Shown here one piece after another: positions 39,451 to 54,744 of a stretch of DNA of 64,000 nt. Position 1 is the stretch's first letter. Each line of letters begins with the position of its first letter. Source of the DNA: Oscillospiraceae bacterium (GTDB lineage: Bacteria > Bacillota > Clostridia > Oscillospirales > JAVBQB01); assembly GCA_031549265.1 (NCBI GenBank), contig JAVBQB010000003.1:20400-84399 (forward strand), given 5' to 3'. The position numbers were made by a program, and so were the translations under genes. The notes beneath the pieces are model-generated. The model was not told the DNA's origin. It was given only the letters and a program-made list of their open reading frames with translations, and searched no databases.

Positions 39451-39487
39451 AACCAGGATGGGGTTTTACGCCTCATCCTGGTTTTTT
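39451..39487. terminator. bidirectional terminator (3' end of the minus-strand signalling operon)
   Basis: AACCAGGATGGGG and CCTCATCCTGGTT form a stem of about 12 bp with a 7-nt loop. TTTTTT follows on plus and TTATTATTT on minus. Confidence 0.7.
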
Positions 39488-39514: not shown

Positions 39515-41044
39515 TTATCTTGCTATCTCGACTCTGTTGCCGCCCTTGGATTTCGCGACAAGCAGCGATTCGCTCGCGAGCTTGATAAGGTCGTCCAGCG
39601 ACTGGCTTTTGGTGCTCATTCTGGCAATGCCGACGCTCACCGAGCATCTGAGCGGGGTGCCCCTGTAATCGTATACGCTGTAGCTGACCTCGTTTTTGAT
39701 CCGTCTCGCGAGGTCCAGCGCGTCTTCCTTCCTGTTGTCGAGCATCATCACGAATTCCTTGCCGCCGAACCTCGCGAGCGGGTATTTCGGGTCGGCGATG
39801 GACTTGATCGAGTCGGCCACCGATTTCATAATGAAGTCTCCGGCTTTGTATCCGAAATTGCTGTTGATCGCCCTCAGCCTGTCGACGTCGACTATTATAA
39901 CGGTCTGCTCGCCGCCGGCTTCGATCGACTCGGCGAACTCGTGCGCCTTGTCGTAGAACGCGTCCCGGCTGTATGTGCCGGTTGCGCGATCGATTGAGGC
40001 GATCGATTGAAGCTCCTCGCTCAGTGCGCGGACTTCAGTCTCGTCGCGGATCAGTATTGACCAGCCCTCGAAGGTGGCGCGCTCTCTTATCCTGCGAATC
40101 GTGCATTTGTAGTATCTGGTCTGGTCGCCGATTGTCACCGGGAAGCTTGTGACCGTCTCTTTCGCGATAAACCGGCGCATGTCGTTCAGCTCGGCGGGCC
40201 AGCCCTTGATCGACTGCAGCTTCTGGAGCGCCTTTTGGTTCATTATCCACGGGAACATTCGGTCAAATGCCCGGTTGCAGCGCAGCATCCTCTGCTCGTC
40301 GTCCACCAGGATCACGGCGTCGGTGACCGCCTCCAGCGCCTGCTCGGTGGTGTGGGACAGGCCCATAAACGGGTTAACGCGCAGCAGGCAGATGAAAAAC
40401 AGAATGATTGACGGAAAGGACGAGAAGATCGGGTAAAACAGATTGCCCGCCTTTAAGCCCCCGTAATAGGCTATAACGCAGCAGAGCGGAATGAACGTCG
40501 CGATCACCATCATTATCACATAGCGGCGGCGGCTCCTGCTCGTTCTGAAGAATCCGATCAGCGTGACCGCGAACGAGGCTAGAAAGCCGGCAATAATGAT
40601 CCCGTAATAAACGTAGGCCCACAGGCCGGGCGTCACCGCGACGGAGCTGACCCCCGTTTCGGCGCTGAACGCTACGTCGGTGTAGAATATCCCCTGCGGG
40701 CCGCTGAGCCACAGGACAATCACCGGCACAACGGGAACCGCGAGCAGTATTGCTCTTGCCGCTCTCGGCAGCTTTAGATCAAAAAACTCGACCACGATCA
40801 GCACCGCCATGACCGAAACGTAAGCTCCGCCGAGCCCCTGAATCTTGAGGCCGACAACGACGCCGTCAAGCGCGGAGGCGGTCAGCTCGATGAGATAACC
40901 GAGCAACAGAACGAAAAGCGAAAGTACAAACGCGATAAAAACGGTAATCTTTTTATTGGCGCAGATGTGGATTGTATAAAACCCGACCGCCAGCATAACG
41001 AGAAGCTCAATGACAGTCAGGGCGATTATCGATTCATTCAGCAT
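39515..41044 (-). CDS. 7TM-PAS-GGDEF protein with degenerate active site (GGKEF)
   Basis: ATG at 41044 overlaps the upstream stop by 11 nt. About seven N-terminal TM helices, then a PAS-like region. GGDEF domain: DRATGTYSRDAF, IIVDVDRLRAINSNFGYKAGD, RFGGKEFVMML, AKSKGGNRV. Lys sits at the third position of the GG(D/E)EF motif, and there is no RxxD I-site. Confidence 0.85.
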   Translation of the reverse strand: MLNESIIALTVIELLVMLAVGFYTIHICANKKITVFIAFVLSLFVLLLGYLIELTASALDGVVVGLKIQGLGGAYVSVMAVLIVVEFFDLKLPRAARAILLAVPVVPVIVLWLSGPQGIFYTDVAFSAETGVSSVAVTPGLWAYVYYGIIIAGFLASFAVTLIGFFRTSRSRRRYVIMMVIATFIPLCCVIAYYGGLKAGNLFYPIFSSFPSIILFFICLLRVNPFMGLSHTTEQALEAVTDAVILVDDEQRMLRCNRAFDRMFPWIMNQKALQKLQSIKGWPAELNDMRRFIAKETVTSFPVTIGDQTRYYKCTIRRIRERATFEGWSILIRDETEVRALSEELQSIASIDRATGTYSRDAFYDKAHEFAESIEAGGEQTVIIVDVDRLRAINSNFGYKAGDFIMKSVADSIKSIADPKYPLARFGGKEFVMMLDNRKEDALDLARRIKNEVSYSVYDYRGTPLRCSVSVGIARMSTKSQSLDDLIKLASESLLVAKSKGGNRVEIAR

Positions 41045-43457
41045 CCGAACTCTCCAAATCAGTTTGAATTACTTTATCAATGGGCAGGTACTTGAGCAGC
41101 AGGTCGTGCAGCCTCGGAATATTGATCGGCTTGGACAGATAATCGGTCATCCCCGCCGAAAAGTAGGTCTCGCTGACGCCGGAGACGACGTTTGCGGTCA
41201 TCGCGATTATCGGAACCGCCGCGAGCGCGCCGCCTATTGCCCGGATCTCGCGCGTGGCGTCCGCTCCGTCCAGCTCGGGCATCATGTAATCCATCAGGAT
41301 CATGTCGTAACTGTTGACTTTCACTTTTTCGATCGCTTCAAACCCGTCGGCAACTGATGTTACGGATATTCCGTACTGCCTGAGCAGCCCTTCCCCCACC
41401 AGCAGGTTGACGGGATTGTCGTCCACAAGCAGCACCGAGACGTCACGGGTCTTGAACGCGCCCGGCTTGACGTTGCGCCTGTTTTTATGCTCGAGCATAT
41501 CCCTGTGGTCGGATTCTATGAACAGCGACGCCAGCTCCATCAGCATGACCGGTTTGTTCAGCACGCCGTGCGCCGCCCGCAGGCTCACCGACCGCTCGTG
41601 TATCCCCTTCATGAAAATAAACCGCGTACGGTCCGCGCGGACGTCGTTTACTATGTCTATCGAGTCGTAGCCGAAGAAAACGTGGGTATACCCGCCCACC
41701 TCAATTTTCGCCTTAAAACTGCCGGGAGTCGCGCAGATATCGCTGGTGATACACAGCTTGTCAAACATCCAGCGCAGCGAGTCGGCCTCAAACCTGTTCG
41801 GGACGCAGCAGAGCGCGCTGAACTCCGCGCTGTTCAGCCTCCGCCAGGCCGAGTCCGGCTCGGAGCCTTCGCATATGATGTAGAACTGGAATTCGGAGCC
41901 CCTGCCGTATTCGCTGGTGGCGGTTATCTCGCCGCCCATCAGCTCGACCAGCCTCCGGCATATAGCGAGGCCGAGGCCGGTTCCGACTATGTTGCGGTTC
42001 ATGCGGGTATTGATCTGCTCAAACACGCCGAACATTTTGCCGATGTCTCCGTTTTTGATGCCGATTCCGGTGTCTTTGACCGTGAAATTGATCCGCCAGA
42101 AGTCGTTGGCCAGCCTGTCCGCGGATATGTGTAGCGAGACCTCGCCCTCTCTAGTGAACTTGACCGCGTTGTTAAGCAGGTTGAGCAGAATCTGCTTCAG
42201 CCGCACCTCGTCGGTGTTCAGCGTCAGTGGCACTCCGGGCGATACGTATGTAGTAAACGCCAGGTTCTGGGCGGCGGCCTTTATGCTGATGATGTTCGCC
42301 GCCGCGATAATGACCGAGGAGAATACGAAGCGCTCGTTTATGATCTGCATCCTGTTGGCGTCGATTTTGGAAAAGTCCAGTATGTCGTCTATGATCTGGA
42401 GCAGTGATCCCGCAGCGTTTTTGATCGAGAGCGTATAGGTCGTCTGCTCGTCGTCGAGGTCGGTCAGAAACATGAGCTCGGTCATGCCGAAGATCGCGTT
42501 CATCGGGGTTCTGATCTCGTGGCTCATGTTGGCGAGAAAGTCGCTCTTGGCCCGCGCCGCAACCTCGGCCTCGTTCTTGGCCTCGATAATGGGCGTAATG
42601 TCCACCCATTCGAAAAACCTCTCGATCCGGCTCTCCCCCATCAGTGAGGAGCGCAGCAGTATCCACTCCGGGCGGCCGTCCACAGTCAGCGCGTACTCGC
42701 GCTCGACATAGCCGGAACTGTGCAGCGTTTCGTGCAGAAGGTCGACCATCTCAGCGCTTTTGAAAAGGTCGAGGAACGGCCGGCCTTTTACCATCCGCCT
42801 GTCCATGATATCCAGGTGGGCGGCGAGCGACGCGCTGATGTATCGGATTTTGGCCTGGGCGTCTACTATGGCCATGAAGCTCGGGGTGGTGTCCATGATT
42901 ATCTCGAACGTTTTGCCGTGGATTTCTGATTTTTTCAACCTGCGGCCACTGACAGATATAATCGCGTACAGAATTATGTTGATTATATTAAAAATACAGA
43001 TCCGTACAAGATGGTCGGCGACCGAAAACTCCGCGCCCAGCAGCGAATACCCGAAAAAAAGAATCGGAGTCACGAATACGAGATTCGCGAGTGCACAGTG
43101 GATAACAAATCCGGTAGTGTTGAAATATATTGCGTTGATCGCCGAAGCCACGATGAGCGAGGCAAAGAATATCTGGTCTCCCCCGAGCAAGACGGCAGAC
43201 ACCGTCGCGCACAGCACTATGGAAAAAGAGCAAATCAGCGACGTCACCGTGGTGGAAACATACCTGCTGAACAGCGACAACTGAATGGCGATTATCGACA
43301 CGACACCAAAGGCCAGACGTATCGACCAGCTATTGCTGCCGAGCCTGTAAAAGTCGAACAGCAGCCCGACAACGACAAGCAGCGTCACCATTCCCGCGGC
43401 AAAAACGCGCACGAATGTATTTATCCGTTTTTCCTGAGTTTTTGTTGTCGAATTCAT
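41034..43457 (-). CDS. hybrid sensor histidine kinase (multi-TM, PAS, HisKA, HATPase_c, degenerate REC-like spacer, receiver)
   Basis: ATG at 43457 after AGGAAAG (the ORF opens at 43532). H-box [20 protein letters not shown]-box LLNLLNNAVKFT, G-boxes DTGIGI and [11 protein letters not shown]. Terminal REC VLLVDDNPVN...LMDYMMPELDG...IAMTANV...SKPI. Confidence 0.9.
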   Translation of the reverse strand: MNSTTKTQEKRINTFVRVFAAGMVTLLVVVGLLFDFYRLGSNSWSIRLAFGVVSIIAIQLSLFSRYVSTTVTSLICSFSIVLCATVSAVLLGGDQIFFASLIVASAINAIYFNTTGFVIHCALANLVFVTPILFFGYSLLGAEFSVADHLVRICIFNIINIILYAIISVSGRRLKKSEIHGKTFEIIMDTTPSFMAIVDAQAKIRYISASLAAHLDIMDRRMVKGRPFLDLFKSAEMVDLLHETLHSSGYVEREYALTVDGRPEWILLRSSLMGESRIERFFEWVDITPIIEAKNEAEVAARAKSDFLANMSHEIRTPMNAIFGMTELMFLTDLDDEQTTYTLSIKNAAGSLLQIIDDILDFSKIDANRMQIINERFVFSSVIIAAANIISIKAAAQNLAFTTYVSPGVPLTLNTDEVRLKQILLNLLNNAVKFTREGEVSLHISADRLANDFWRINFTVKDTGIGIKNGDIGKMFGVFEQINTRMNRNIVGTGLGLAICRRLVELMGGEITATSEYGRGSEFQFYIICEGSEPDSAWRRLNSAEFSALCCVPNRFEADSLRWMFDKLCITSDICATPGSFKAKIEVGGYTHVFFGYDSIDIVNDVRADRTRFIFMKGIHERSVSLRAAHGVLNKPVMLMELASLFIESDHRDMLEHKNRRNVKPGAFKTRDVSVLLVDDNPVNLLVGEGLLRQYGISVTSVADGFEAIEKVKVNSYDMILMDYMMPELDGADATREIRAIGGALAAVPIIAMTANVVSGVSETYFSAGMTDYLSKPINIPRLHDLLLKYLPIDKVIQTDLESSDAE

Positions 43458-43547
43458 AGGCCGCTTTCCTTTGATGCTGTGTTTGAAAATTATAGATACC
43501 ACGGCGGTGTTTGGGCTATACGCAGCTTCCACACCGGAAACATTATT

Positions 43548-44507
43548 TTATCGTCTGACCGCTCCGGCAAAAATTCCGCCGGGTGCCGGGATAAGGCCGG
43601 CCGGGCAGACGAAATTCACGGCACCGGGCACAATTTCGCAGGACAGCTTCCGGTCAAAATAAACTTCGCCGTCAAGCGAATAACAGAACGGAGACTTCGA
43701 CGTGATATCGATCTTTCTTGCCTGAATGTGGTTAACTTTGTCGGAGACGCTGTCGTAACTCCCCCGCGTGTAATGGTACGCCACCGGAATTACCTTGTAC
43801 CGGTTCCTCAGCGCGATCATGTAAATCTCCAGCCGGCCGTCGTCGGGGCGCGCCTCGACAGCGGGAACCATCTTTCGCCCGTATGTCGCGATATTCGCTA
43901 TATTCATTGAAAAGTACCTGCCGGAATAGTTCTCGCCGTCAATTACAACGTTCATCGCCTCCTGCGGAAACCCGCCGGACAGCGCGCAGTGGATGCCCGC
44001 CACCTTGAAGCCGATATCAGATGCGATGCCCGTCTTTTCACTGATCTTGTCGCCGTGATATTTGGCCGAGGCCTCCGCCCCGATAAGGCAGTTGGCGATC
44101 CCGTATTTATTGCCGCAGCTGAACGCGTCCAGATAAATCGTGTCCGCCATAACGAGATTGCGCAGCGAGGAAAACAGATGCACGTTTTTCTCGCCGAAGC
44201 AGTTGATGAACGAATTCAGCCTGCCGCGCGGATAATAGGCGATCTGGACGTTGGGCATGTGCATACATCCGTTTACAACCTCGTTCAGCGTTCCGGAGCC
44301 GCCCACCGCGTAAACGCGCACAATGTCCCGCGCATCTGCCATATATTTGCGGATGTAGCTGACGGCGTCTCTGGAAAACTTGGTGACGTAAATATCGAAC
44401 TGCATGTCGGAGTACAGTTTGAACAGCCCGTGAATCGAGGTGACGATCTCTTCGATATTGCCCTTGACCAGCTCGGCCACGGGATTGATAATAAACAAAT
44501 GTTTCAT
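43548..44507 (-). CDS. diacylglycerol/lipid kinase family protein (YegS/BmrU-like) with divergent catalytic motifs
   Basis: ATG after GGGGTGAG, 12 nt after the upstream stop. MKHLFIINPVA..., AVGGSGTLNEVVNG (GGSGT instead of GGDGT), YYPRGRLNSF (instead of P-x-GTGNDF), and C-terminal SLDGEVY. Confidence 0.75.
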   Translation of the reverse strand: MKHLFIINPVAELVKGNIEEIVTSIHGLFKLYSDMQFDIYVTKFSRDAVSYIRKYMADARDIVRVYAVGGSGTLNEVVNGCMHMPNVQIAYYPRGRLNSFINCFGEKNVHLFSSLRNLVMADTIYLDAFSCGNKYGIANCLIGAEASAKYHGDKISEKTGIASDIGFKVAGIHCALSGGFPQEAMNVVIDGENYSGRYFSMNIANIATYGRKMVPAVEARPDDGRLEIYMIALRNRYKVIPVAYHYTRGSYDSVSDKVNHIQARKIDITSKSPFCYSLDGEVYFDRKLSCEIVPGAVNFVCPAGLIPAPGGIFAGAVRR

Positions 44508-44519
44508 TGACTCACCCCG

Positions 44520-47057
44520 TCAGAGCCGGTTGATTTCGTCTTGCAGCCCGCGCCGCAGAGCCTCGATCCGGTCGAGCGCGGTTTCGCAGTCAAACGCCGA
44601 CAAGCTGTCCGTAACCGCGTCAACAGCCGCGTCGAGCTTTTCCCCGAACCGGACGCCCGAAAACCTGCCCATCAGCTCGATCGCCGCCTCCGGGTCGAAA
44701 TCCGCCGTGACCCGCGCGAGTTCGGGCAGCGCCTCCAGCAGCCCGGTCAGACGCGCCCGCGACATATTCTTCGCCTCCAGCACCACAGCGAGCCGCTTTT
44801 GCAGCCACAGCGCCTTTTCCCGGAAGTCCGGATACGTCTCCCGGCAAAACTGCATATTGCCAGACTTCGAGCTGTGCTCCAGCTCCTCGGCGGAGGCGGC
44901 GAGCGTTCTGCTGCCGAGTGTCTTCAGCGTGCTTTTCAGACTGTGAACCTCGACGGTAAACGGCTTGGCGTCGTCCGTGTTTTCGATATACCTGTCCAGC
45001 TTTTCGACCGAGGTTGCGATGAACCGGGGCGCGGCCGAGATCAACCCTTCCAGAACCTCGGCGAATCCGCCGGAATTCTTGAACGCTTTTTCGAGGTCAA
45101 TTTCCCCGATATCCTCAATCGCGCCGGCAAAGACCGGATCAAGTCCGTGGCGGCGGGCGGGAGCTTCGGCTTGCCGCGCGTCACAGGGCTCACCGACGCT
45201 TTCTGGCGGTTCGCCGCCTGCCGACACGGGGTTTTCCGAGCGCGCGCTGCCGGTAAATGGCGGCGTTACCGCGAAGGGGCTGGCGGGCAATTCGCCGTGG
45301 ACGCCGCTTGCCTTACCGCTAGCTTTTATATTTATGACCCCCGTTTCCATATTCGAGCCGATATTTGCGTTGAAATTCTTGGATGACAGCCAGAGCGAGA
45401 GCGTTTTCGCTATGTGGACCAGAATGTACTCCTCGCGGGCTGCGATAAAGCCCTCGTCGCCGGAGCTTTCGAGGACTATGAACCCCTTGAGCCTCGGCTC
45501 AAAATGGAGCGGAAGGAAATAGCCGGTCTGCGTTTGCTCCATCAGAAAGTCGATTCCCCTTTCGGTGACCAGGTAGCGGTTCAGGCACAGAATTTCCTTC
45601 CCTGACAGCATGGCCTCGATCTCCGCTCCGGACTGTATAAACTGCCGCGCAAGGCTGCCCGGCTCACGGAATCCGTAGTTTTTTTCATAGCAGGAGATCA
45701 GCTCCGCGCTTCCGTCGGTGAAATGGGCGATCGACGTGCGCAGTAAGTTGAACCGCTTGGTAAACATGATTGCGATGCTGTTGAACGCGTCCTCCACGCT
45801 GTTTGCGTCCTGCAGCAGCAGCGCCATTTCCGACTGGATGGCGAACTGCACCTGAAGGCTCTTCTGTGCCATATTGCTCACCCTAAGCTGCTCGACAATC
45901 CTGTGCAGCGACCTGGACAGCACACCAATTGTCTTATCATTTTTGACCGAGACCTCGAAATTGGCGTTCAGGTTGCCGCTCGCTATCTCGTCAGCGGTGT
46001 TTATAAGTACATCGATGGGGTGCAGCAGCCTTCTCGTGACAAAATACGCAAAGAGCGAGGTCAGGGCGATAACAGCCGCAAAGACGACGATCAGCGTAAC
46101 GACGATAGGCCGCACACCCGCGTATGCGGCATCAATTTGCAGCGCGATGAACACGATAATTCCCGACTGGCTGGGCATGTAATACCCGTAACTTCTGCCG
46201 GGCAGCATGTCTGACTTCAGATTGCTGAGAAAGAGCGGCCTCATTTCCGAAAACGCGCGGTTGATTTCATCCAGATTAGTAAAATTCATACTGTGCAGGC
46301 AGGCGTCGATGAATTCCGGGCTGGTGGCCGACAGAATCCGGCAGTCCGGCGAAAACAGGGCGGCAACCGCGTCTCCCAGCCCCTCCACATCGAGAGTCAT
46401 TTCATCCAGGCGCACATCGGCGCCGGCGCATCCGATTATTCGTCCGTCCCTCGTGACCGGAGCGACGATTGTCAGCGAATAGCGGTAGTCGGCGGAGTCG
46501 CGCGTGCTGCCGATCCTCACCCTCGGCGCTATGATATCGAAGTATATCTTGCCGGTTTCTTTCGCGCTGTTGTAATACGGGTAGAGCATCCGGTTGTCGA
46601 TCTCGTCCTCCAAAATGTCCGCCTCGACCGCGATCTTGCCGCCGAGGTCGACATATGACCTGATAAACCTGCCGGACGGCGCGCCGGGATAATCCTCCCC
46701 GTGCCTTTCATCCCTGCCATCGAACGCGCCGGGATCAAAGGCCAGCCAGACCTTGTGTATATCGTCGTTTTCGAACATCGAGCGTATCGCCTTGTCGCAC
46801 CTGCCGCGCGCGAAAGCGTCGTCCGGGTCCACGCTCTCGATCGCGAAGACGGTGGAAAGCAGCGTCAGCTTAACGCCCTTAACGATCCCGTCATACTTTT
46901 GCGCATACGTCTGCGCGACGCTTTGCAGCTTCTGCCTGGTCTCGTTTTCGACGTTTTTATGCACTGTGTCCAGCAGATAAAAGAACACCACAAACGTGAT
47001 CGCGAAAATAGGCAGCAGTATCGCTAAATGAAACTTCCGCGCGATCAAACTTTTCAT
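44520..47057 (-). CDS. transmembrane sensor-Hpt protein: TM, dCache-like, TM, HAMP, GAF-like, Pro-rich linker, Hpt; no kinase core
   Basis: ATG after GGAGGT. Cache-like VTRDGRIIGCAGADVRLDEM. HAMP LLHPIDVLINTADEIASGNLNANF. GAF-like GYFLPLHFEPRLKGFIVLESS. Hpt motif VEVHSLKSTLKTLGSRTLAASAEELE, with His705 encoded at 44943-44945. I see no H-box, N-box or G-box anywhere in the 845 aa. Confidence 0.85.
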   Translation of the reverse strand: MKSLIARKFHLAILLPIFAITFVVFFYLLDTVHKNVENETRQKLQSVAQTYAQKYDGIVKGVKLTLLSTVFAIESVDPDDAFARGRCDKAIRSMFENDDIHKVWLAFDPGAFDGRDERHGEDYPGAPSGRFIRSYVDLGGKIAVEADILEDEIDNRMLYPYYNSAKETGKIYFDIIAPRVRIGSTRDSADYRYSLTIVAPVTRDGRIIGCAGADVRLDEMTLDVEGLGDAVAALFSPDCRILSATSPEFIDACLHSMNFTNLDEINRAFSEMRPLFLSNLKSDMLPGRSYGYYMPSQSGIIVFIALQIDAAYAGVRPIVVTLIVVFAAVIALTSLFAYFVTRRLLHPIDVLINTADEIASGNLNANFEVSVKNDKTIGVLSRSLHRIVEQLRVSNMAQKSLQVQFAIQSEMALLLQDANSVEDAFNSIAIMFTKRFNLLRTSIAHFTDGSAELISCYEKNYGFREPGSLARQFIQSGAEIEAMLSGKEILCLNRYLVTERGIDFLMEQTQTGYFLPLHFEPRLKGFIVLESSGDEGFIAAREEYILVHIAKTLSLWLSSKNFNANIGSNMETGVINIKASGKASGVHGELPASPFAVTPPFTGSARSENPVSAGGEPPESVGEPCDARQAEAPARRHGLDPVFAGAIEDIGEIDLEKAFKNSGGFAEVLEGLISAAPRFIATSVEKLDRYIENTDDAKPFTVEVHSLKSTLKTLGSRTLAASAEELEHSSKSGNMQFCRETYPDFREKALWLQKRLAVVLEAKNMSRARLTGLLEALPELARVTADFDPEAAIELMGRFSGVRFGEKLDAAVDAVTDSLSAFDCETALDRIEALRRGLQDEINRL

Positions 47058-47130
47058 TTGACCTCCACTCGTTGCGCCTCAACCGGTTGTTTGGGGCACT
47101 CTGAAAAAAATGCCCCTTATCAGCGCGCAC

Positions 47131-50100
47131 TCATTCGCCCGCCCGCTTTGCCAAGCCTCCGGCTCTGTCATAATCGAATTCAGACATCGCCTCTTGTATC
47201 TCCAGCAGGAGTCCGTTCTTTTTTGCGCCGAAATCATATCCGGCGAGCCCGCTGATTATCTCCTCGGCTTTGTCAATAGAGTAGTTCTCCAGCTCCGAGG
47301 TCAGATCAGCCAGCGCCGATTTGAAAAACTCCGGATCACCCTGTTTTTTCTCGCGGCGTTCACCGGCTCCCGGCGCACTCACGGCAAAAACGCTGAGCTG
47401 GCTGCCCAGCTCTGTAAGCCGCTCTAGGAACACCGGCAGCCTCGCGATGGCCTCATCCAGCCGGTCAGCCTTGGATGTCTCCTCGATCTCGCGCGCCGCC
47501 GCGGCCAGGGCCACTGCCCCGAGGTTATCCAGCGCGCCCTTTATGCCGTGGATTTCGGTGATAAAGTTCTTTTTATCACGGGCTTCGGCAGCGTCGCTGA
47601 GCCTCTGGATGACCGACGGGATTATCTTGGCCAGCATTTTCAGCGACTCGCAGTAAATGTCTGTCTGGTTTTCTATGCGGCGCAGGCCGAGCTCCGCGTC
47701 CAGCTCCGGAATTATTGACAGCCTGTCCAGCAGCGATTCGAATTCCGGGTCGGCGGGCTCGGCAAGTGACTGGCCGCCCGCTTTGACCGAGGTAATCTTT
47801 TCAGGCGGCAGCCATTTCTGAAGTATCCTGACAAGCTCCCTTTTGTCGATGGGCTTTTTGAGGAAGTCGTTCATTCCGGCTTCGAGCAGCATCATTTTCG
47901 CTTCCTCGAAAGCGTTTGCGGTCAGCGCGACAATTACGGTGTCCTCCTTCGCGTAGCCCCGCTCGCGCAGTATCTTCACGGCCTCGGCGCCGTCCATCTT
48001 CGGCATCATGTGATCCATAAACACGATGTCGTAATGCTTGGCCTCGATCATGCTGATGGCCTCGGCGCCGCTGCTCGCCGTCTCGCACTCGATGTCACAC
48101 AGGCGGAGCAGGCCGGACGATACGTTCAGGTTGATTTCGTTGTCGTCCACAACCAGGATATTGGCGTCCGGCGCCGAGACAAACGCGAAGTCGTCGTCCG
48201 CCAGGGAGAAAATGGATTCGTCGCCGGGCATATACGGCGCGGATACGTGAAAAGCGGAGCCCTTGCCGTATTCGCTCTCCACCCACAGGCTGCCGCCCAT
48301 GCATTTGATGATGTTGCGGCTGATCGCGAGGCCGAGCCCTGTGCCCTGAATATTCTTGTTGGCGTGCTGGTCGAGCTGTTGAAACGCGTCGAACAGCTTG
48401 CCGATGTCCTCTTCCTTGATTCCTATGCCGGTGTCGTAAACGTCGAACAGCAGCAGGCCATTGTGTTCGGACACCTCCATTACGACATGGCCCTCAGAGG
48501 TGAACTTCACGGCGTTGCTGAGCAGGTTGACCAGTACCTGGCGCAGGCGGGTCTCGTCGCCGTAAATGCAGGTCGGCAGCTCGGTTTTTTCGATCAGCTT
48601 GAACTCGACGTTCTTCTGGTTGACCGAATACTCGATGAATGAGCGGAGATTGTCCAGCAGGTCGCGCAGTCTGAAGTCGGAGCACACCAGCTCAAACTTG
48701 CCGGACTCGATTTTCGATATGTCGAGTATGTCGTTGATCAGCGTCAGCAGCGACTCTGCCGAGACCTTTATGTCGTAGGCGTACCGGCGCTGCCGCGTCG
48801 TCAGGTTCTCGACCAGCAGCAGCTCGGACATGCCGATTATGGCGTTCATGGGCGTCCGTATCTCGTGGGACATGTTGGCGAGGAACAGCGACTTCGCCTT
48901 GGCGGCGTGCTCGGCGCGCACTGTCATCTGCATCAGCTCGGCCGTCCGCTCGTCGACGCACCGCGACAGGTTTTTCTCCAGCTGGTCGCGCTCGAGGCCC
49001 AGCTGCCGCCTGTTGAGCAGGTTGGACAGCATGCCGCCGATATTGCCGAAAAGCTCCTCGTCGGTATGGGTAAAGCGCCGTCCGCCGTCGAGATCGATCA
49101 TCGCGAGGTATCCGCAGTAGCTGTCAAACTCGGTCAGCGGAACGAGGCATGCTTTTGCCGTTTCGGCGTTCAGCTCCAGCTCCGCGATCTGAGCCGGGCT
49201 CAGCTCGAGAATCCTGGTGTGGCTTGTCTCGATCGCCGAGGTCAGCCGGTCGACCAGGCGCGTATGCTTCATCGGCAGGAATTCGCGGGTCGCGGCCTTT
49301 TGCCAGAAGGCGACCAGCGACGGCTGTTCGTGCGAAATATGCACGATAAATACGATCGAAAACCCGAGCAGCTGGCCGGTGCTCTCCGCCGCCGCCTGAA
49401 ACGCGTCGTCCAGGTCGAGCTTGCTCTGAATTGTGCTGAGCACGCTGTTATAAACCATCAGCTCGCTGGAAATCTGGCGCTCAATCTCAAGAGAATCATT
49501 GAGCTGCACCACCATTCGCTTGATCGCGCCTGCGAGCATCCCGATCTCGCCCTGCTTTTCGGAAGCAAAATCGAACTCGCCGATATCCACGCCGCCCTCG
49601 GTCGCGATCCTGTCCGCCGCCTCGGCAATCCGCTTTACCGGGTCGGTTATCCTCCGCGCCGTGATGAAATTCGCGATTATCAGCGTCAGGCATCCGAAAA
49701 TGAAGATGAGAACAGTTATCATCGCGAGGTTCAGCCCCGGAGAGTAGAGCACCATGTCGTCCAGAATATTGCAGAACGACCAGTATGTGTTCAGAGCCGG
49801 GATTTTTACCGGATAGAGGCTGACAATAAAGGTATTGGTTTTGGTTTTGTAGTTGCCGACCTGGAACAGCCGCTCGTGGTTTTCAACAGCCTTTACAACC
49901 CCGGCAGGGCTTACAAATCCGATATCGCTTACTTTCTTGTCATAAAACTGGGCGTCGTTGGCAAAGGCGACGTAGCCGTCCTCCTGGAACAGAATATATT
50001 TCCCGCCGATCGTGTTAAGGGTGCTTATCATTTCACATTGGGTGGAAAAAGAAATGTCAACGCCAACGCAGCCGATGATTTTCCCGTCGCGGGTAATCGG

Positions 50101-50685
50101 GGCGGCGATGGAGTTAACATACTTTTTTGCGCGGCTGTCTTTATAGTCGTGGAATTCCGGGCGCAGGACCGCCATCTTGCCGGTCGTCAGCGGCAGGTAG
50201 TACCACTTGGTATCCGGCTTGTCGAGCTTGCTTTCGTCGACGTCATAGACCTCGGCCGGCTGCCCGTCCTTCATAATATACGATTTGTTGAACCTGCCGG
50301 ACATGCTGTTGCGCTGAATTCCGGCAAAATCGGCATCGCGCCCGTCGAACGCGTCCGGCTCGAAAGCGATCCACACGTTGTACGAATGGTCGACCGAGCG
50401 CAGCATACCGCTGACGATGTCCTCTACCTTCGCGCGGGAGGAAGCTTCGTCGTGCGGGTATGCGGAGATGATCTCGGAGACCTGATTCAGTGTATTGCAG
50501 GCGTTTGAGAGCACGCCGCTGAAATGCTCCGCCACTTTTTCGGCGGAGTATTCGAGCTGCCTGCGAACCGAGTCTCCGGCGAACGTGACTACCATATAAC
50601 AGAGGGAGGCCAGCATAATAATGAAAAAAATCACAGTCGGAACCAGCGTTCCCAGAAATACTTTGCTGAGAATTGTATTTTTCAT
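47131..50685 (-). CDS. unorthodox hybrid sensor kinase: TM, dCache-like, TM, HAMP, GAF, HisKA, HATPase_c, receiver, Hpt
   Basis: ATG at 50685 after GTGAGGA (the ORF opens at TTG 50706). Cache-like [42 protein letters not shown]-box [20 protein letters not shown]-boxes DTGIGI and [25 protein letters not shown]...[11 protein letters not shown]...KKPID. Hpt [27 protein letters not shown]. Confidence 0.9.
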
Positions 50686-50762
50686 ATCATCCTCACCACA
50701 GGTCAAGCCCCGACCGCCGACGGCGGAAAGTCAGCCGCTTGAGTCTCCGGCCGGCAAAGGTA

Positions 50763-51902
50763 TCAATAGAATCCTTTGGCCAGCATTTCAAATTGCTTTT
50801 CGACTGTCAGAAAAACCTCCACAAGACTCGGGTCAAACGAGTATCCCGAGTCCTTTTCGATCAGCTTAACCGACATTTCGTGGCTGATCTCGCCCTTATA
50901 CGGCCGGTGTGACCGGAGCGCGTCGTACACGTCGGCTATGGCGAGCACCCGCGCCATAAACGGGATGTCCTCGCCGGCAAGCCCGTCAGGATAGCCCTCG
51001 CCCGACCATTTCTCGTGGTGGCTGCGCGCCATTGTCAGCGCGTGCTTCAGGAAGATATTGTCATGCGCGAAGCGGATTGCCTCCGATATGGAATCCGCGC
51101 CGAACAGCGTGTGCGCCGGCATCGCCTCAAGTTCCTGCGGCGACAGCATGGACTTGATTATCGAATCGGCTCCCTGGTTTGTGTGGGTCTTTATGCTGTC
51201 AAATTCGTCCGAGGTCAGCTTGCCGGGTTTGAGCAGGATGTGGTCGGGGATCGCAATTTTTCCGACGTCGTGCAGCTTGGACGACAAGACGATGGCGGGA
51301 ATGTCCTCGACTTCGATCCCCTCCGCCTTGTTCGCGTTAAACAGCGCGTCCAGCAATATTTCAACGTACTGCGAGACTCTGATTGTGTGCCCTCCGGTAT
51401 AGCCGTCCCGCTTCTGGATAAGGTCCGAAACCGTATGTATGATGGCGAACTGGAGCTGGAGTATGTTCTGCGTCTTTTCGTCGACCAGCGATTGCAGATT
51501 GTTCGCGTACCCCGCGAGCTCTTTTTTCTGGCTCAGCATGGTCAGATGGATTTCCACCCGCTTTTTGAGCAGCTCGGGATGGATTGGCTTCACGATGTAG
51601 TCGACCGCGCCGATTGACAGGCCGTCGACCTCAGTCTCCACCTCGTTTGCCGCCGTGAGGAAAATGATGGGTATTTCGGCCAGGTTGCCGTCGCTTTTCA
51701 GAGTTTTCGCGAGCTGGAACCCGTCCACATCCGGCATATTGACGTCAAGCAGAATGAGGTCGGGAAGCTCGCTGAGCTTGCCCAGCACTTTCAGCGCCAT
51801 CGCTCCCGAAGGCACCGGAACCACGGTATACGATTTTTCCAGCACCTTTTTTGCGAGAGTAAGATTAATTACGTTATCATCAACGATCATTATCCTGCTC
51901 AT
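50763..51902 (-). CDS. response regulator with HD-GYP c-di-GMP phosphodiesterase domain (RpfG-like)
   Basis: ATG after GAGGTG. REC IMIVDDNVINL...LLDVNMPDVDG...VKPI. HD-GYP motifs GGHTIRVSQY, HDVGKIAIPD, HHEKWSGEGYPDGL. Confidence 0.9.
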   Translation of the reverse strand: MSRIMIVDDNVINLTLAKKVLEKSYTVVPVPSGAMALKVLGKLSELPDLILLDVNMPDVDGFQLAKTLKSDGNLAEIPIIFLTAANEVETEVDGLSIGAVDYIVKPIHPELLKKRVEIHLTMLSQKKELAGYANNLQSLVDEKTQNILQLQFAIIHTVSDLIQKRDGYTGGHTIRVSQYVEILLDALFNANKAEGIEVEDIPAIVLSSKLHDVGKIAIPDHILLKPGKLTSDEFDSIKTHTNQGADSIIKSMLSPQELEAMPAHTLFGADSISEAIRFAHDNIFLKHALTMARSHHEKWSGEGYPDGLAGEDIPFMARVLAIADVYDALRSHRPYKGEISHEMSVKLIEKDSGYSFDPSLVEVFLTVEKQFEMLAKGFY

Positions 51903-52092
51903 GCGGAAAACACCTCTGGTTTCGTCTTTTATTATGTTATGGGTAGCAATATATACAGCAATAGTATATTAGCATACAAGAATTTAAAAATCCATCATTT
52001 TTCACACGAATTTCATCAGAATACGACATAATATTGAGCCGCTTTCGAACCATTCGATTATTGTGTACTATTTTCGTAGATGTTGCTCAATC

Positions 52093-52121
52093 TTGATTAT
52101 TTTGACTTGTTCATTTATAAT
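52093..52121 (+). promoter_or_regulatory. candidate promoter for the surface-protein genes
   Basis: TTGATT (52093-52098), 17-nt spacer, TATAAT (52116-52121), 138 nt upstream of the ATG at 52259. Confidence 0.5.
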
Positions 52122-52258
52122 ATATAAGACTTTTCAATTTGATCCGGACGCACTGTCCCGAATACGGGTTCGCGTCATCAGCTTTTTGTCAGCACGGCAG
52201 CGTTTTTTGCGCGAATCTGCGCCACCGTGCCCGATTATATTTACTTTTGGAGCTTGAA

Positions 52259-53032
52259 ATGAAAAAATTCTTTAGCGTATTGCCTGTGCTTCTTTGTTTT
52301 ATCTTGCTTGCGGGCTGCTTCGGCCCTCCGTCCGACCCGCCTCCTACCAAACCACCGGCGCTTGACGAGGTTTCTGCATCGCCTGACGCCGAAGCCCCGG
52401 CCTCCCCGGACGCCGATGTCTCCTCCGCCTCTCCCGCAGATGAGGAAAAACCCTCTCCGGAGGACGCGAGCCCGTCCCCCGCGGATACCGGCAACGCTCC
52501 GTCAACAGCAGACACCGGCGACAAAACAGGCGCAGATACCGGGGATACTCCGACCGTGTCCGACCCGCCTCCGGAAAGTTCCGCTCCGAACGAATCCGCC
52601 CCTCCCGCGGACTCTCCCTCGCCCGCTCCGACTCATTACACGTTTACCGTGCCGGACGGATGGGTATCCGCCAATATCGAAAACGGAAAATCGCTGACGA
52701 ATCCCTCGATTCCGGGCGCTGAAATCAGGATTACCAGATACGGGGGCGAGGGTGATCAATTCAACTCCAGCAACTTCAAAAACTGCCTCAGCAGGCATCC
52801 CGAAATATCCGACAAAAGGGTCGCTGGGTTTTTCACCTATAGAATGGACGGCGTGGCGTTCAACAGCTTTAATTTCACCGGCGACATCCAGGGCCGCGAG
52901 ATCGGCGGCAGTTCCTTTTGGATTAGGCTGGGCGACGATCTTCTGATCTGCGACGGAATTGCGCCGGTCAAAAACCAGGATTTGGTCGGCGACGCCGTCT
53001 CCGCCATTCTGTATTCCAGCAAGTTCCAATGA
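52259..53032 (+). CDS. lipoprotein with Pro/Ser/Asp/Ala-rich low-complexity linker
   Basis: ATG at 52259. Lipobox FILLAGCFG. About 110 aa of P/S/A/D-rich sequence, then a globular C-terminal domain with no recognised family. Confidence 0.7.
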   Translation: MKKFFSVLPVLLCFILLAGCFGPPSDPPPTKPPALDEVSASPDAEAPASPDADVSSASPADEEKPSPEDASPSPADTGNAPSTADTGDKTGADTGDTPTVSDPPPESSAPNESAPPADSPSPAPTHYTFTVPDGWVSANIENGKSLTNPSIPGAEIRITRYGGEGDQFNSSNFKNCLSRHPEISDKRVAGFFTYRMDGVAFNSFNFTGDIQGREIGGSSFWIRLGDDLLICDGIAPVKNQDLVGDAVSAILYSSKFQ

Positions 53033-53076: not shown

Positions 53077-54744
53077 ATGAAAAAGCTATCGTCCTTTGTT
53101 CTGGCCTTCGCGATGCTGGCGGCGCTCTTGCCGACGGGCACCAGAGCGCTCGCCGCCGATACCGTCTGGCAGTCCTCCAAGAGCGTGTCCTTCCCCGGAG
53201 GCAGCAGAACGGTCACCGCCGTGTACATAAACACTAGCGACAAGACGCTGATGGTCGACGCCGTGTTCGCCGGCGGCCAGATCGGCAGCACCGCCAGCCT
53301 CAGCGCGATGGCCGAGACAAAGAACACCGGCGGCCGCCAGGTTGTCGCCGCCATAAACGGCACTTTTTTCGACGCCTATGTTAAAAGCGGGCCCAAGCTG
53401 CCCTTTGGCACCATTGAGTCCGGCGGCAGGCTGGTCTACGCCAACGACGCTCCGACCTTCGCCTTCAGCTCGGCAGCAGGGCCGATGATCTCTTACGCCT
53501 GCCCCAAGATCACCGGCAGAGTCTACAACACCGGCAACGACGGCCAGAAAACGCTGGAATGGAAGAACGAAACGGTCAACAGCCTCTACAGTAAGGATCA
53601 GGGACACGCGGTTTTCACGACGGCATACGGCAAGACCACCGGCCCGCACAACATGACCTCGTATGTGGTCAGAAACGGCGTTATAACCGAGAAAATACAG
53701 GGCGAGGCTCCGATATACGCGGACGGTTACACCATCGTAACCAACTACGCGTGGAACATCAGCGACATCTACAAGGTCGGCTGCAGGATAGATATGGAGA
53801 TCAAAAGCTACGACCGCGGCGGCAATCCGCTCGGCGACGACTGGGACAGCGCCGAAACCATGCTGGGCGTCGGCCCGACGCTGGTGCGCGGCGGGAATAT
53901 TATCGCCGACCCGGCCGCCGAGGGCTTTTCCGAGGGCAAAATCGCGACTGGAGCCGGACAGCGCAGCTTCATCGGGTATACAAAGGACAAAATTCTCGTT
54001 ATGGGCACGGTTCCGAACGTTACGATCAAACAGCTGGCGCAGGTCGCCCAGAGTATGGGACTGACCGACGCTATGAACCTCGACGGCGGCGCTTCATCCG
54101 GCCTTTACTACAACGGCAAGTACGTGACCAGCCCGGGCAGGGATCTCAGCAACTGCCTGGTCGTCACAAGGGGCGCGGCACCGGCTCCTCCTCCCGACAA
54201 CGGCGCGGTTCCGTCCTCCTGGGCAAAAGCTGAGATCGACGCCGCCATTGCCCGCGGACTTGTCCCCGCCGAGCTTCAGTCCCGCTATAGGGACAATATT
54301 ACGCGGCTGGACTTTTGCCACTTGCTCGGACAGGCTATCGAGGTGAAAACCAGCCGTTCGCTGCGGGAGCTTTCGGACTCATACGCTTCCCCGCAGGCTC
54401 CGCTCACTTTCTCCGACACGATGGACGAAAGCGTCGGTTATCTCAGCCGGATGGCGATTGTATCGGGCTATCCCGATGGGCGTTTTGGTCCTAGCGACCA
54501 AATTGAGCGCCAGCAAGCCGCGAAGATACTGGCCGTCACCGCCGCCGCCGTCAATGGATCTTCAACCAGCGGTTTTGCGCCCGCTTTCGCGGATAACTCG
54601 AATATCGCGGCCTGGGCGCTGCCGTTCGTCGGCTACGTCTCAAGCTCCGGCATCATGAAGGGCCTGGACGGCAACCGCTTCGACCCGACCGGCAAATACA
54701 CCCGCGAGCAGTCGGTCATTACCGTGCTGAGGCTGCTCGGCTGA
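53077..54744 (+). CDS. phosphodiester glycosidase (NAGPA/DUF2233) family protein with C-terminal SLH repeats
   Basis: Signal peptide MKKLSSFVLAFAMLAALLPTGTRALA. NAGPA-type core ending in AMNLDGGASSGLYYNGKY. SLH repeats FSDTMDESVGYLSRMAIVSGYPDGRFGP and FADNSNIAAWALPFVGYVSSSGIMKGLDGNRFDP. Confidence 0.8.
   Translation: MKKLSSFVLAFAMLAALLPTGTRALAADTVWQSSKSVSFPGGSRTVTAVYINTSDKTLMVDAVFAGGQIGSTASLSAMAETKNTGGRQVVAAINGTFFDAYVKSGPKLPFGTIESGGRLVYANDAPTFAFSSAAGPMISYACPKITGRVYNTGNDGQKTLEWKNETVNSLYSKDQGHAVFTTAYGKTTGPHNMTSYVVRNGVITEKIQGEAPIYADGYTIVTNYAWNISDIYKVGCRIDMEIKSYDRGGNPLGDDWDSAETMLGVGPTLVRGGNIIADPAAEGFSEGKIATGAGQRSFIGYTKDKILVMGTVPNVTIKQLAQVAQSMGLTDAMNLDGGASSGLYYNGKYVTSPGRDLSNCLVVTRGAAPAPPPDNGAVPSSWAKAEIDAAIARGLVPAELQSRYRDNITRLDFCHLLGQAIEVKTSRSLRELSDSYASPQAPLTFSDTMDESVGYLSRMAIVSGYPDGRFGPSDQIERQQAAKILAVTAAAVNGSSTSGFAPAFADNSNIAAWALPFVGYVSSSGIMKGLDGNRFDPTGKYTREQSVITVLRLLG

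Follow-up and report, generated by a model that had tools for sequence, protein, structure and literature searches.

Several described systems come close to the gene cluster that is analysed here. In Xanthomonas, the multi-TM hybrid kinase RpfC, which lacks a large periplasmic domain, signals via its own Hpt domain to the REC-HD-GYP regulator RpfG for c-di-GMP degradation, and a lipid-metabolism-type protein is encoded alongside. RpfF binds the receiver of RpfC. In this DSF system for fatty-acid sensing, RpfC is described as the membrane receptor that perceives a fatty acid (PMC5391125). Moreover, tripartite kinases such as ArcB, BarA and TorS carry HisKA, HATPase, REC and Hpt domains in one chain. 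In Staphylococcus aureus, the polytopic membrane protein GdpS binds DgkB via its GGDEF domain and holds it at the membrane, a non-catalytic role for which the GGEEF motif is not needed (PMC11962490). The window, which is the whole stretch of 64,000 nucleotides that was analysed, contains six minus-strand ORFs (50763-51902, 47131-50706, 44520-47057, 43548-44507, 41034-43532 and 39515-41044, designated g1 to g6 in this order) that can be compared with these systems. The features of the locus are as follows.

51903..52138, minus strand: presumed promoter and 5' UTR, AT-rich, 236 nt, 5' of g1
50763..51902, minus strand: g1, response regulator REC-HD-GYP, 379 aa (Pfam REC 88.8 bits, HD_5 92.4 bits)
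47131..50685, minus strand: g2, complete tripartite sensor kinase, 1184 aa from the ATG at 50685 (Pfam, TM scan)
47093..47116, minus strand: stable hairpin in the g2-g3 spacer (-15.3 kcal/mol, z -3.95, without U tract)
44520..47057, minus strand: g3, membrane sensor-Hpt protein without kinase core, 845 aa (Pfam, family alignment, AlphaFold)
43548..44507, minus strand: g4, soluble protein with DgkB/YegS fold, 319 aa (Pfam DAGK_cat 44.0 bits, YegS_C 53.6 bits)
41034..43457, minus strand: g5, hybrid histidine kinase, 807 aa from the ATG at 43457 (Pfam, TM scan)
39515..41044, minus strand: g6, 7TM-PAS-GGDEF protein, 509 aa (Pfam HisKA_7TM 65.5 bits, GGDEF 84.9 bits)
39451..39487, minus strand: intrinsic terminator ending the g1-g6 unit (hairpin CCAGGAUG...CAUCCUGG, -19 kcal/mol, z -3.7, then UUAUUAUUU)

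The six-gene unit consists of a conserved four-gene cassette (g1, g3, g4 and g5) and two additions (g2 and g6). On balance, we lean towards the view that the six genes form one signalling unit on a horizontally shared cassette, in which a relay runs from g5 via g3 to g1 and g4 has a non-catalytic part. When the spacings are reckoned from the ATGs at 50685 and 43457, each of which is preceded by an RBS, the gaps of 77, 73, 12 and 90 nt and the subsequent 11-nt overlap given in the preliminary description are reproduced exactly. The terminator that had been placed downstream of g6 was confirmed by folding, although a simple terminator scan missed it. The hairpin in the g2-g3 spacer, which had been suggested to subdivide the unit, is real; it lacks a U tail and is not a canonical intrinsic terminator. 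A U-tailed intrinsic terminator was not found anywhere inside the run of six genes. The GC3 is uniform (0.72-0.76) over the six genes and their neighbours. The RBSs, short gaps, single overlap, terminal terminator and uniform GC3 are consistent with co-transcription as a single unit. The region upstream of g1 faces a divergent ORF (52139-53032). A consensus scan of this region gave no sigma-70-type match on the minus strand, and no Rfam family was detected upstream of g1, which speaks against a c-di-GMP riboswitch at this position.

The regulator g1 combines the features of HD-GYP response regulators of the RpfG and PA4781 type, namely a receiver with its phospho-acceptor (Asp53) and the HD (His211-Asp212), HHE and GYP motifs; HDVGK, HHEKWSGEGYP and the other metal ligands are all in place. 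The closest solved relatives are PA4781 (4r8z, E 8.6e-39) and PmGH (4mcw), with which g1 aligns across REC and HD-GYP, the ligand residues being aligned and every metal-ligand motif being kept. Unlike both, it contains about 30 inserted residues in which an HTxxGADSI segment is repeated. The identity between g1 and the response regulators of DAGK-linked cassettes elsewhere is 36-46%.

The kinase g2 shows the full HisKA-HATPase-REC-Hpt order of ArcB, BarA and TorS with intact His, Asp and His residues in one chain. It consists of two TM helices with a dCache/PDC domain, HAMP, a GAF-like domain (weak in Pfam), HisKA (His607), HATPase, REC (Asp891) and an Hpt domain (His1046; PF01627, 28.6 bits, which passes), followed by a C-terminal helical extension. 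None of the NCBIfam equivalog cut-offs was reached, the best partial matches being TorS, BarA and ArcB (344-366 bits), and g2 is therefore not an orthologue of any named tripartite kinase. The sensory front end and the Hpt domain are also retained in g3; in contrast to the tripartite kinases, the transmitter and receiver are wholly absent. Two TM helices with a dCache domain are followed in g3 by HAMP, a GAF fold (~421-568), a disordered linker (~562-635), the Hpt domain (His705) and a helical extension (~770-845). Pfam detects dCache, HAMP and Hpt, of which the latter remains below the cut-off as a single sequence (PF01627, 20.5 versus 24.6 bits). The Hpt histidine (IEVHGxKGAL) is invariant in 28 members of the g3 family and lies in an HxxKG context. 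In the AlphaFold model, the Hpt region is helical and an alpha/beta domain matches GAF structures. Furthermore, g2 and g3 are collinear in their N-terminal (residues 1-463, 26% identity, E 3e-34) and C-terminal parts (967-1175, 27% identity, E 4e-11), and the kinase core and the receiver of g2 map onto the disordered linker of g3. Judged by these alignments and the model, g2 appears to be an intact, complete tripartite paralogue of g3, and g3 the front end of a tripartite kinase whose kinase core and receiver were lost. The literature searched yielded no characterised bacterial protein with the architecture of g3; predicted transmembrane Hpt proteins were described there in plants only.

The second kinase, g5, has about 5-6 TM helices, PAS, HisKA (His313), HATPase, an interdomain region of ~140 aa and REC (Asp723), and is devoid of an Hpt domain. 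With the kinases encoded downstream of g4 homologues in other phyla, it shares 39-43% identity over nearly the full length. The stop of g5 is overlapped by 11 nt by g6, which also exceeds the TIGR00254 cut-off for GGDEF domains (94.8 versus 37.4 bits; PF00990 at the score listed). Alignment to DosC, PA0861 (5xgb) and 3ign places Lys429 at the D/E position of the signature motif (GGKEF) and DPKY where the RxxD I-site would be, and the GGDEF domain is predicted to be inactive. No close homologue of g6 was found in 5.8 billion proteins, the only relative being a shortened 7TM ORF that occupies this position in another cassette (L088:9653-10378). In the favoured reading, g6 is a lineage-specific addition.

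The domain calls of the preliminary description all hold on Pfam and extra checks, including the GGKEF motif and the GAF fold in g3, and so does the inventory of two kinase cores, three intact receivers and two Hpt domains. A residue check showed that the catalytic His and Asp residues, the N and G boxes and the HD-GYP ligands are intact. The HD-GYP domain is predicted to be the sole plainly competent catalytic output, a DNA-binding regulator is absent from the Pfam domains, and two enzymes do look degraded, i.e. g4 (GGSGT for GGDGT) and g6. The idea of two membrane sensors has to be revised because the relay contains three (g2, g3 and g5). As regards gene order, the six-gene arrangement does not recur in other genomes, but the core of g1, g3, g4 and g5 does.

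The lipid-kinase-like g4 passes the gathering cut-offs of PF00781 (44.0 versus 23.6 bits) and PF19279 (53.6 versus 27 bits) and matches the profile of soluble lipid kinases (E 4e-15). Its AF2 model (pLDDT 93) has the two-domain fold of DgkB, YegS from E. coli and BmrU (DAGK_cat and YegS_C); the best Foldseek match is DgkB 2qv7 (E 7e-24, TM 0.74-0.77), and the comparison with 2qv7/2qvl gave TM values of 0.74-0.83. However, g4 stays below the cut-off of TIGR00147, the YegS/Rv2252/BmrU family of lipid kinases (72.1 versus 118.65 bits). It also differs from the canonical enzymes in the loss of two aspartates, having GGSGT (Ser71) for GGDGT and GRLNSF (Ser99) for GTxNDF, and both are missing throughout the kinase-linked subclade. 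The GGDG motif binds ATP (PMC10331486). In the subclade, the place of the aspartate in this motif is taken by S, N, T, G, V, M or P, and such variety speaks against one particular new catalytic residue. The polar replacements (S, N and T) might support an altered chemistry. Besides the ATP-motif aspartate, ~30 further positions that canonical enzymes conserve have been lost, GTxNDF and the glycine loop among them; G12, D71, N75, T96, G97, D99, R134, H153, K154 and the GGG loop have all disappeared from the clade. The C-terminal-domain motifs DDG and (I/L)DGE are mostly kept in the clade, and g4 has both DDG and DGE. The clade has conserved residues of its own (W44, R46, Y55, S114, E145, Y184 and Y228), which indicates selection for a new function. 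The loss of the GGDGT aspartate is suggestive of inactivity rather than proof of it, and g4 is presumed to be a pseudo-kinase partner of g5. A precedent for a structural role only is provided by AGK, a DAGK-fold subunit of a membrane-protein complex, the human TIM22 translocase (7cgp_B, fold match to g4 with E 1e-17). The role of AGK in TIM22 is independent of its kinase activity. Unlike g4, AGK is eukaryotic, keeps GGDGT and is unrelated to phosphorelays.

The cassette is carried by ~45 of 185,579 species representatives from Spirochaetota, Synergistota, Bacillota and Betaproteobacteria. The recurrent order REC-HD-GYP, sensor-Hpt, DAGK-like protein and TM-hybrid kinase was found in Treponema, Spirochaetaceae, Synergistaceae, Eubacteriales/Defluviitaleaceae and Zoogloeaceae/Betaproteobacteria. 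In the reciprocal search from the sensor-Hpt protein, full-length relatives of g3 occurred in only ~32 species representatives, and all of these loci whose flanks are long enough contain the cassette. At protein identities of 25-45%, the core order persists across the four phyla. A census of those unique DAGK-like proteins for which 1 kb or more of downstream sequence was available revealed that the Asp-less type is directly followed by the hybrid kinase in 43 of 44 cases (upstream in the remaining one) and that the type with GGDG[I/V] is kinase-linked in 9 of 9; for canonical GGDGT proteins, which usually stand alone, this holds in 1 of 62. Among the partners of the hybrid kinase, the lipid-kinase-like protein, which the preliminary description had treated as peripheral, is the one conserved most tightly. 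In a neighbour-joining tree, all linked DAGK-like proteins form one clade, of which the Asp-less proteins are a subclade. The placement of the Hpt domain is complementary: 36 loci have an Hpt-less kinase and a sensor-Hpt gene, 10 have an Hpt-fused kinase and no sensor-Hpt gene, three have neither and none has both. The sister cassettes comprise three genes (REC-HD-GYP, DAGK and TM-HisKA-HATPase-REC-Hpt), and their kinase and regulator have the architecture of RpfC/RpfG with the Hpt on the kinase. Moreover, the sister clade contains fusions of the types 7TMR-DISM-HisKA-HATPase-REC-DAGK (P0216), dCache-HisKA-HATPase-REC-DAGK (P0202), REC-GGDEF-DAGK (P0170) and sensor-DHp-like-DAGK (P0155, P0167). 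All fusions but two fall in this GGDG-retaining sister clade and not in the Asp-less clade. In the favoured reading, g4 descended from a signalling-dedicated DgkB-type clade that elsewhere is fused right behind receivers. The regulator is not always of the HD-GYP type, since clostridial cassettes have an unknown helical domain with REC instead, and no HD-GYP gene is nearby in 14 of the 36 four-gene loci. A counterpart of g2 was found in none of the other cassettes. The carriers are gut bacteria, and the source was the gut of higher termites for every cassette genome with a checkable origin; no cultured organism carrying the cassette was found, and the literature searched contained no description of it. 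The occurrence in four phyla with this common source suggests that a whole sensory pathway has spread horizontally and responds to something habitat-specific.

In the relay that we favour, g5, whose inputs would be the 5-6-helix membrane domain and PAS only, autophosphorylates at His313, and Asp723 in its own receiver then takes over the phosphoryl group. Since g5 lacks an Hpt domain, the next acceptor would be His705 of g3. The latter protein keeps the extracellular dCache, HAMP and GAF domains, and because the Hpt domain is carried on this sensory protein, the phosphotransfer step itself would be ligand-gated. Transfer from g3 to Asp53 of g1 would then switch the HD-GYP c-di-GMP phosphodiesterase. 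Compared with RpfC/RpfG, the kinase ends in REC, the Hpt domain resides on a separate dCache-HAMP-GAF protein (g3) or on g2, and the accessory protein has the DgkB fold and not the crotonase fold. No crotonase-type domain or DSF synthase was noted in g1-g6 (Pfam) or in those neighbouring ORFs that were scanned. A second, self-contained sensor-to-Hpt route into g1 could be provided by g2, and alternative Hpt routes into g1 are plausible. The DgkB-fold protein is most likely non-catalytic and associated with the kinase, either reporting a membrane lipid to g5 or being positioned by its receiver, and g6 may act as a nucleotide sensor or membrane docking site. The window encodes at least five further Hpt-less hybrid kinases that could use the Hpt domains of g2 and g3 too, so that the relay may be less insulated than in this scheme.

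One objection is that g4 might still be an enzyme, i.e. a lipid kinase under receiver control that has a variant nucleotide site, whose activity on the membrane is switched by phosphorylation of the g5 receiver and which would constitute a second catalytic output beside HD-GYP. The intact fold, the retained acidic motifs, the clear purifying selection on the g4 family and the place of the DAGK domain in the sister clade, where it sits C-terminal to REC like an output domain (P0216, P0202, P0170), would fit. However, no member of the subclade retains the ATP-motif aspartate, for which varying residues are substituted, the ~30 further canonical positions are gone and the family score stays below its cut-off. 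We consider this unlikely. Alternatively, g4 may be recruited to the membrane by the dead GGDEF domain of g6 and thus partner g6 instead of g5, the relay genes being mere neighbours. The analogy is GdpS-DgkB, as the window encodes both a DgkB-fold protein and a 7TM protein whose GGDEF domain is dead; furthermore, a REC-GGDEF-DAGK fusion exists, g6 is membrane-bound and overlaps g5, and a g6-like 7TM gene occupies this position in the cassette closest to the present one (L088). However, DgkB is active, essential and encoded elsewhere in the S. aureus genome, while g4 looks inactive and has a kinase as its constant partner: among ~50 other cassettes none has a GGDEF gene, and the kinase is almost always there. 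Moreover, g6 has no close homologues, and the GdpS-DgkB interaction is limited to Staphylococcaceae according to the GdpS study (PMC11962490). A pairing of g4 with g6 as the primary arrangement seems quite improbable, and it would be at most a lineage add-on.

It could also be argued that independent signalling genes came together by chance or mere synteny and share no pathway. The window is crowded with genes for sensor kinases and chemoreceptors, g2 is peculiar to this cluster, g6 has one partial relative, and the stable hairpin and the 90-nt gap could split transcription. Nevertheless, the conserved core order in four phyla with frequent start/stop overlaps, the linkage of 43/44 versus 1/62, the Hpt complementarity of 36:10:3:0 and the domain fusions make such an origin extremely improbable.

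If borne out, three features would be novel for the two-component and c-di-GMP fields. The first is a lipid-kinase fold as the fixed partner of one hybrid histidine-kinase family; a DgkB-type fold beside a kinase or behind receivers suggests that phosphorelays are linked to membrane lipids, a connection of which the literature searched contains no description. The second is a sensor with an Hpt domain only, which would let an extracellular signal act on the phosphotransfer step and not on the kinase, and the third is a cassette that spread across phyla within one habitat. After GdpS-DgkB, the locus would be a second, independent hint at a functional connection between GGDEF domains and DgkB-type proteins. 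A bolder and distinctly doubtful proposal is that the Asp-less DgkB-fold protein is a relay component tying His-Asp phosphotransfer straight to membrane lipid, for which one could invoke the loss of the ATP site, the kept acceptor-side DDG and DGE motifs, the new clade residues and the sister fusions. In its strong form, g4 could take the phosphoryl group from the kinase receiver or Hpt~P and pass it to or exchange it with lipid, and would have given up ATP because of this source. In the milder form, g4 could bind a diacylglycerol-like lipid and gate the transfer from receiver to Hpt, with c-di-GMP turnover tracking the lipid state. In both forms, the DAGK domain would have to be counted among the receiver-coupled modules. 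A point against the favoured reading is the arrangement of the two genes concerned: in cassettes elsewhere, overlaps of 4 or 11 nt between the DAGK-like gene and the kinase gene are frequent, whereas g4 and g5 are 90 nt apart, and a TATAAT-like box sits in this gap.

The six adjoining minus-strand open reading frames at 39515-51902 of the window (g1 to g6 in the order of transcription) had been regarded as a single signalling unit. The preliminary description was right about this unit, which is more structured than it had been read to be, with a conserved cross-phylum cassette within it. The gaps of 77, 73, 12 and 90 nt and the 11-nt overlap reported between the genes were reproduced with ATG start codons preceded by ribosome-binding sites at 50685 for the tripartite kinase gene g2 and at 43457 for the hybrid kinase gene g5. 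These codons were favoured over a TTG at 50706 (g2) and a GTG at 43532 (g5), which were dropped. The proposed terminator at the end of the unit was recovered as a hairpin (-19 kcal/mol) with a U-rich run behind it, and a single transcript for g1 to g6 is consistent with the sequence. A hairpin without a U tract in the g2-g3 spacer (47093-47116; -15.3 kcal/mol, z -3.95) is very stable and may act in transcript processing or stability or as a weak attenuator. A terminator-like site inside the g2 coding sequence (47395-47412) was attributed to chance, the scan having returned 25 sites where 16 were expected. An Rfam scan of the whole window yielded no elements, and the idea that the g1 leader contains a c-di-GMP riboswitch was therefore rejected. 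GC3 is even across g1 to g6 and the neighbouring genes, which, as far as composition can tell, rules out a recent horizontal gain of g2 or g6.

All domain assignments made earlier were upheld by Pfam, those of the Hpt and GAF domains of g3 with support beyond a single-sequence search.

Domain architectures of the products of g1 to g6 (39515-51902, minus strand)
g1, regulator: REC-HD-GYP (Pfam)
g2, tripartite kinase: dCache/PDC-HAMP-(GAF)-HisKA-HATPase-REC-Hpt (Pfam)
g3, sensor-Hpt protein without kinase core: dCache-HAMP-Hpt (Pfam)
g4, DAGK-like protein: DAGK_cat-YegS_C (Pfam)
g5, multi-TM hybrid kinase: PAS-HisKA-HATPase-REC behind about 5-6 membrane helices (Pfam and hydropathy scan)
g6, 7TM-PAS-GGDEF protein: HisKA_7TM-PAS-GGDEF (Pfam)

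As a single sequence, the Hpt domain of g3 reached 20.5 bits and thus stayed below the Pfam cut-off of 24.6; its His705 (context VEVHSLKS), within the motif IE(V/I)HGxKGAL, is invariant among all Hpt-bearing relatives. The GAF region of g3 has no Pfam match. AlphaFold models residues ~421-568, in the cytoplasmic half, as an alpha/beta domain, for which the top PDB matches are all GAF domains (TM up to 0.74). The catalytic residues are intact in both kinases, the three receivers and the HD-GYP domain. The GGDEF domain of g6 is degenerate, as had been claimed, with Lys429 at the D/E position of GG[D/E]EF, and it lacks an RxxD site; g4 carries GGSGT where the canonical signature is GGDGT. The HD-GYP domain of g1 contains an insertion (51090-51190, residues ~238-273) with a second copy of HTxxGADSI (KTHTNQGADSII, PAHTLFGADSIS). 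Because this segment is duplicated, the HMMER match of g1 to PA4781, the nearest solved structure, is split into two overlapping pieces. Both g2 and g3 end in a helical extension of ~80 residues past the Hpt bundle, which is conserved throughout the sensor-Hpt family.

Post-Hpt helical extension (consensus ...FDxxxA...LExxEYxxA...)
44520-44750, minus strand: g3, residues ~770-845
47131-47360, minus strand: C-terminus of g2

With nine relatives (24-31% identity) among the 5.8 billion proteins searched, g3 is a rare sensor-Hpt protein. One genome per GTDB species and the JGI metagenomes were scanned with an alignment of DAGK-like proteins, and GTDB was also scanned with the sensor-Hpt family, for which an alignment was used because a scan of the species genomes with the single g3 protein had given no match. 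The loci were annotated with family HMMs made in this analysis. In a census of those unique DAGK-like proteins whose genes are followed by 1 kb or more of sequence, a multi-TM hybrid kinase was encoded immediately downstream of 43 of the 44 proteins in which the GGDGT aspartate is replaced (hereafter Asp-less) and upstream of one. All nine GGDG[I/V] proteins were linked to such a kinase, as was one of the 62 canonical GGDGT proteins. In a rough neighbour-joining distance tree, the kinase-linked proteins form one clade separate from 97 canonical proteins; the Asp-less proteins are a subclade, with g4 near its base. The reverse search from the sensor-Hpt family uncovered full-length relatives in ~32 species, and each locus with enough flanking DNA adjoins an Asp-less protein and a kinase. 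We are highly confident that g1, g3, g4 and g5 represent a functional unit; that the cluster has come together by chance is contradicted by the linkage census and can be considered extremely improbable.

Of 185,579 species representatives, ~45 from the Spirochaetota, Synergistota, Bacillota and Betaproteobacteria possess this cassette. The genes for the REC-HD-GYP, sensor-Hpt, DAGK-like and hybrid kinase proteins follow each other in this order in metagenome bins of Treponema, and the latter two mostly overlap by 4 or 11 nt. This order is shared by a betaproteobacterial contig with a second sensor gene without Hpt, which in Betaproteobacteria/Zoogloeaceae sits between the sensor-Hpt and DAGK-like genes. 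A Defluviitaleaceae bin encodes, in this sequence, a sensor-Hpt, a receiver, a DAGK-like and a hybrid kinase protein. The regulator of the clostridial cassettes is not a REC-HD-GYP protein; it consists of a helical N-terminal domain of ~200 aa, which has no Pfam match, followed by REC. This domain holds a (F/I)DxEDYxxA motif similar to the C-terminal extension of the sensor-Hpt proteins.

Variant genes of the cassette in other loci
L006:9986-11794, L024:2699-4357, L026:6299-7993, L028:6305-7993, L029:6215-7993: second sensor gene (dCache-HAMP-GAF-like, ~560-600 aa, without Hpt), Betaproteobacteria/Zoogloeaceae
L003:11018-11980, L012:6937-7986, L022:998-1969: clostridial helical-REC regulators

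The neighbourhood check found the full six-gene order in no other genome. The other cassettes contain no counterpart of g2, and the homologue search found no close relative of g6, its sole relative being a truncated 7TM reading frame that occupies the corresponding place in L088, the closest cassette. The unit in the window is the conserved cassette with an added tripartite kinase and an added degenerate GGDEF protein. The sample codes Emb289, Th196, Lab288, Nt197, Cu122 and Co191 denote guts of higher termites (PMC7024585), and the names of most other cassette bins resemble these codes in style, the termite origin being established for the checked codes only. The cassette is cross-phylum and habitat-restricted, the habitat being the termite gut for the sources checked. 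A three-gene sister cassette is preceded, at a distance of 4-9 kb, by three consecutive serine-recombinase genes (L090:448-5339), which hints that some cassettes reside on or beside mobile elements.

The cassette exists in two forms. The four-gene form has a hybrid kinase without Hpt and a separate sensor-Hpt gene, and the three-gene form comprises REC-HD-GYP, DAGK(-like) and a multi-TM kinase with an Hpt domain fused at its end. Among the loci with complete information, 36 combine a kinase without Hpt with a sensor-Hpt gene, 10 have a fused Hpt and no sensor-Hpt gene, three have neither and none has both. The fused Hpt and the sensor-Hpt gene are thus strictly complementary; no other indirect evidence speaks as strongly for the Hpt domain of g3 serving the kinase g5. 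Moreover, g2 and g3 are collinear at both ends (g2 1-463 with g3 1-459; g2 967-1175 with g3 611-827), and the transmitter and receiver of g2 map to a predicted disordered linker of g3. The sensor-Hpt family therefore has the appearance of a tripartite sensor kinase from which the kinase core and receiver have been lost, and g2, judged from the alignment, is the intact paralogue still present in the window. The window also encodes at least five further hybrid histidine kinases without Hpt (HisKA/HATPase and one or two REC domains). As no Hpt domains were seen in the window besides those of g2 and g3, these kinases could be additional clients of the two proteins.

Hpt-less hybrid kinases in the window
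72-1040
1218-2705
3355-6417
19596-23555
23751-25304

The confident model of g4 (pLDDT 93) has DgkB, sphingosine kinase 1, YegS and BmrU as top structural matches, and a profile search against PDB sequences retrieved DgkB with an E value of 4e-15. With 72 bits, g4 fails the cut-off of 118.65 of the curated NCBI YegS/BmrU family. GGDG is the ATP-binding signature of the superfamily (PMC10331486); the residue roles assigned to g4 follow that study and general knowledge of the superfamily. What the canonical stand-alone proteins have and the kinase-linked Asp-less clade has lost are the GGDGT and GTxNDF aspartates, the glycine in the NPxAG loop at the N-terminus, N75, R134, H153, K154 and a glycine-rich loop around residue 210. 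The DDG of the C-terminal domain is kept and DGE mostly so, and W44, R46, Y55, S114, E145, Y184, Y228 and others have become near-invariant. The residue pattern is, on its face, that of a pseudoenzyme under selection for another role. That g4 has remained an enzyme, with a changed nucleotide site, and is itself a receiver-controlled output is unlikely: the aspartate is replaced by S, N, T, G, V, M or P, a variety that fits a lost function better than a newly gained catalytic residue. A non-catalytic role of g4 is somewhat favoured.

When 1.84 billion cluster representatives were searched with a profile, 756 relatives were obtained at E 1e-30 or better; the best 150 of them include 42 Asp-less, 66 GGDG[non-T] and 37 canonical proteins. 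Several relatives are fusion proteins.

DAGK fusions among the relatives retrieved
P0216: 7TMR-DISM-HisKA-HATPase-REC-DAGK
P0202: dCache-HisKA-HATPase-REC-DAGK
P0170: REC-GGDEF-DAGK
P0155, P0167, P0149, P0152, P0231: membrane sensor and DHp-like helix (His replaced by Arg/Asn) directly before DAGK

In the P0155-type proteins, which retain GGDG and resemble 'sensor DAG kinases', the lipid-kinase domain appears to replace the histidine-kinase ATPase domain. All but two of the fusions belong to the GGDG-retaining sister clade. The fusions show that this lipid-kinase branch is a signalling module downstream of receivers and sensors, and they independently support its physical link to hybrid kinases.

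We infer the following relay and gene roles. The kinase g5 would sense a signal via its membrane/PAS module and autophosphorylate on His313, and the phosphoryl group would probably pass from Asp723 of g5 via His705 of g3 to Asp53 of g1, thereby controlling c-di-GMP hydrolysis. Since g3 possesses dCache, HAMP and GAF domains but no kinase, an extracellular ligand would gate the transfer step, and g2 would provide a second complete route into g1. The DAGK fusions suggest that g4 binds g5, most likely at the receiver side. Without phosphorylating anything itself, g4 may report a diacylglycerol-like lipid, or the kinase may position g4 at the membrane. The protein g6, with its inactive GGDEF domain, may be a sensor of GTP or c-di-GMP or a membrane dock for g4. 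A pairing of g4 with g6, which would be compatible with the other readings, has a published precedent: the Staphylococcus aureus membrane protein GdpS recruits DgkB via its GGDEF domain, for which catalysis is not required (PMC11962490). However, nearly all other cassettes lack g6, so that such docking would be only a local addition, and we consider this pairing quite improbable.

The closest system in logic is RpfC/RpfG, in which a multi-TM hybrid kinase with Hpt acts on a REC-HD-GYP regulator, and the three-gene sister cassettes have the same architecture. Three features set the unit in the window apart: a separate sensor bears the Hpt domain, the accessory protein is of the DgkB fold and additional genes are present. 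The tripartite kinase g2 is of the ArcB/BarA/TorS type and an orthologue of no named member. A search of the freely accessible literature found no description of a histidine kinase with a DAG-kinase-like partner or of a bacterial membrane sensor-Hpt protein. The unit would gain in significance if the g4 relic indeed couples the relay to membrane lipids. Elsewhere in the window, SLH-domain proteins encoded at 33254-35689 and 53077-54744 flank the operon region and, combined with the top matches of the operon proteins, assign the source to the Bacillota. The reading frame at 8660-10477 encodes a GT4 glycosyltransferase fused to a PlsC-type acyltransferase domain, possibly an enzyme of glycolipid synthesis.
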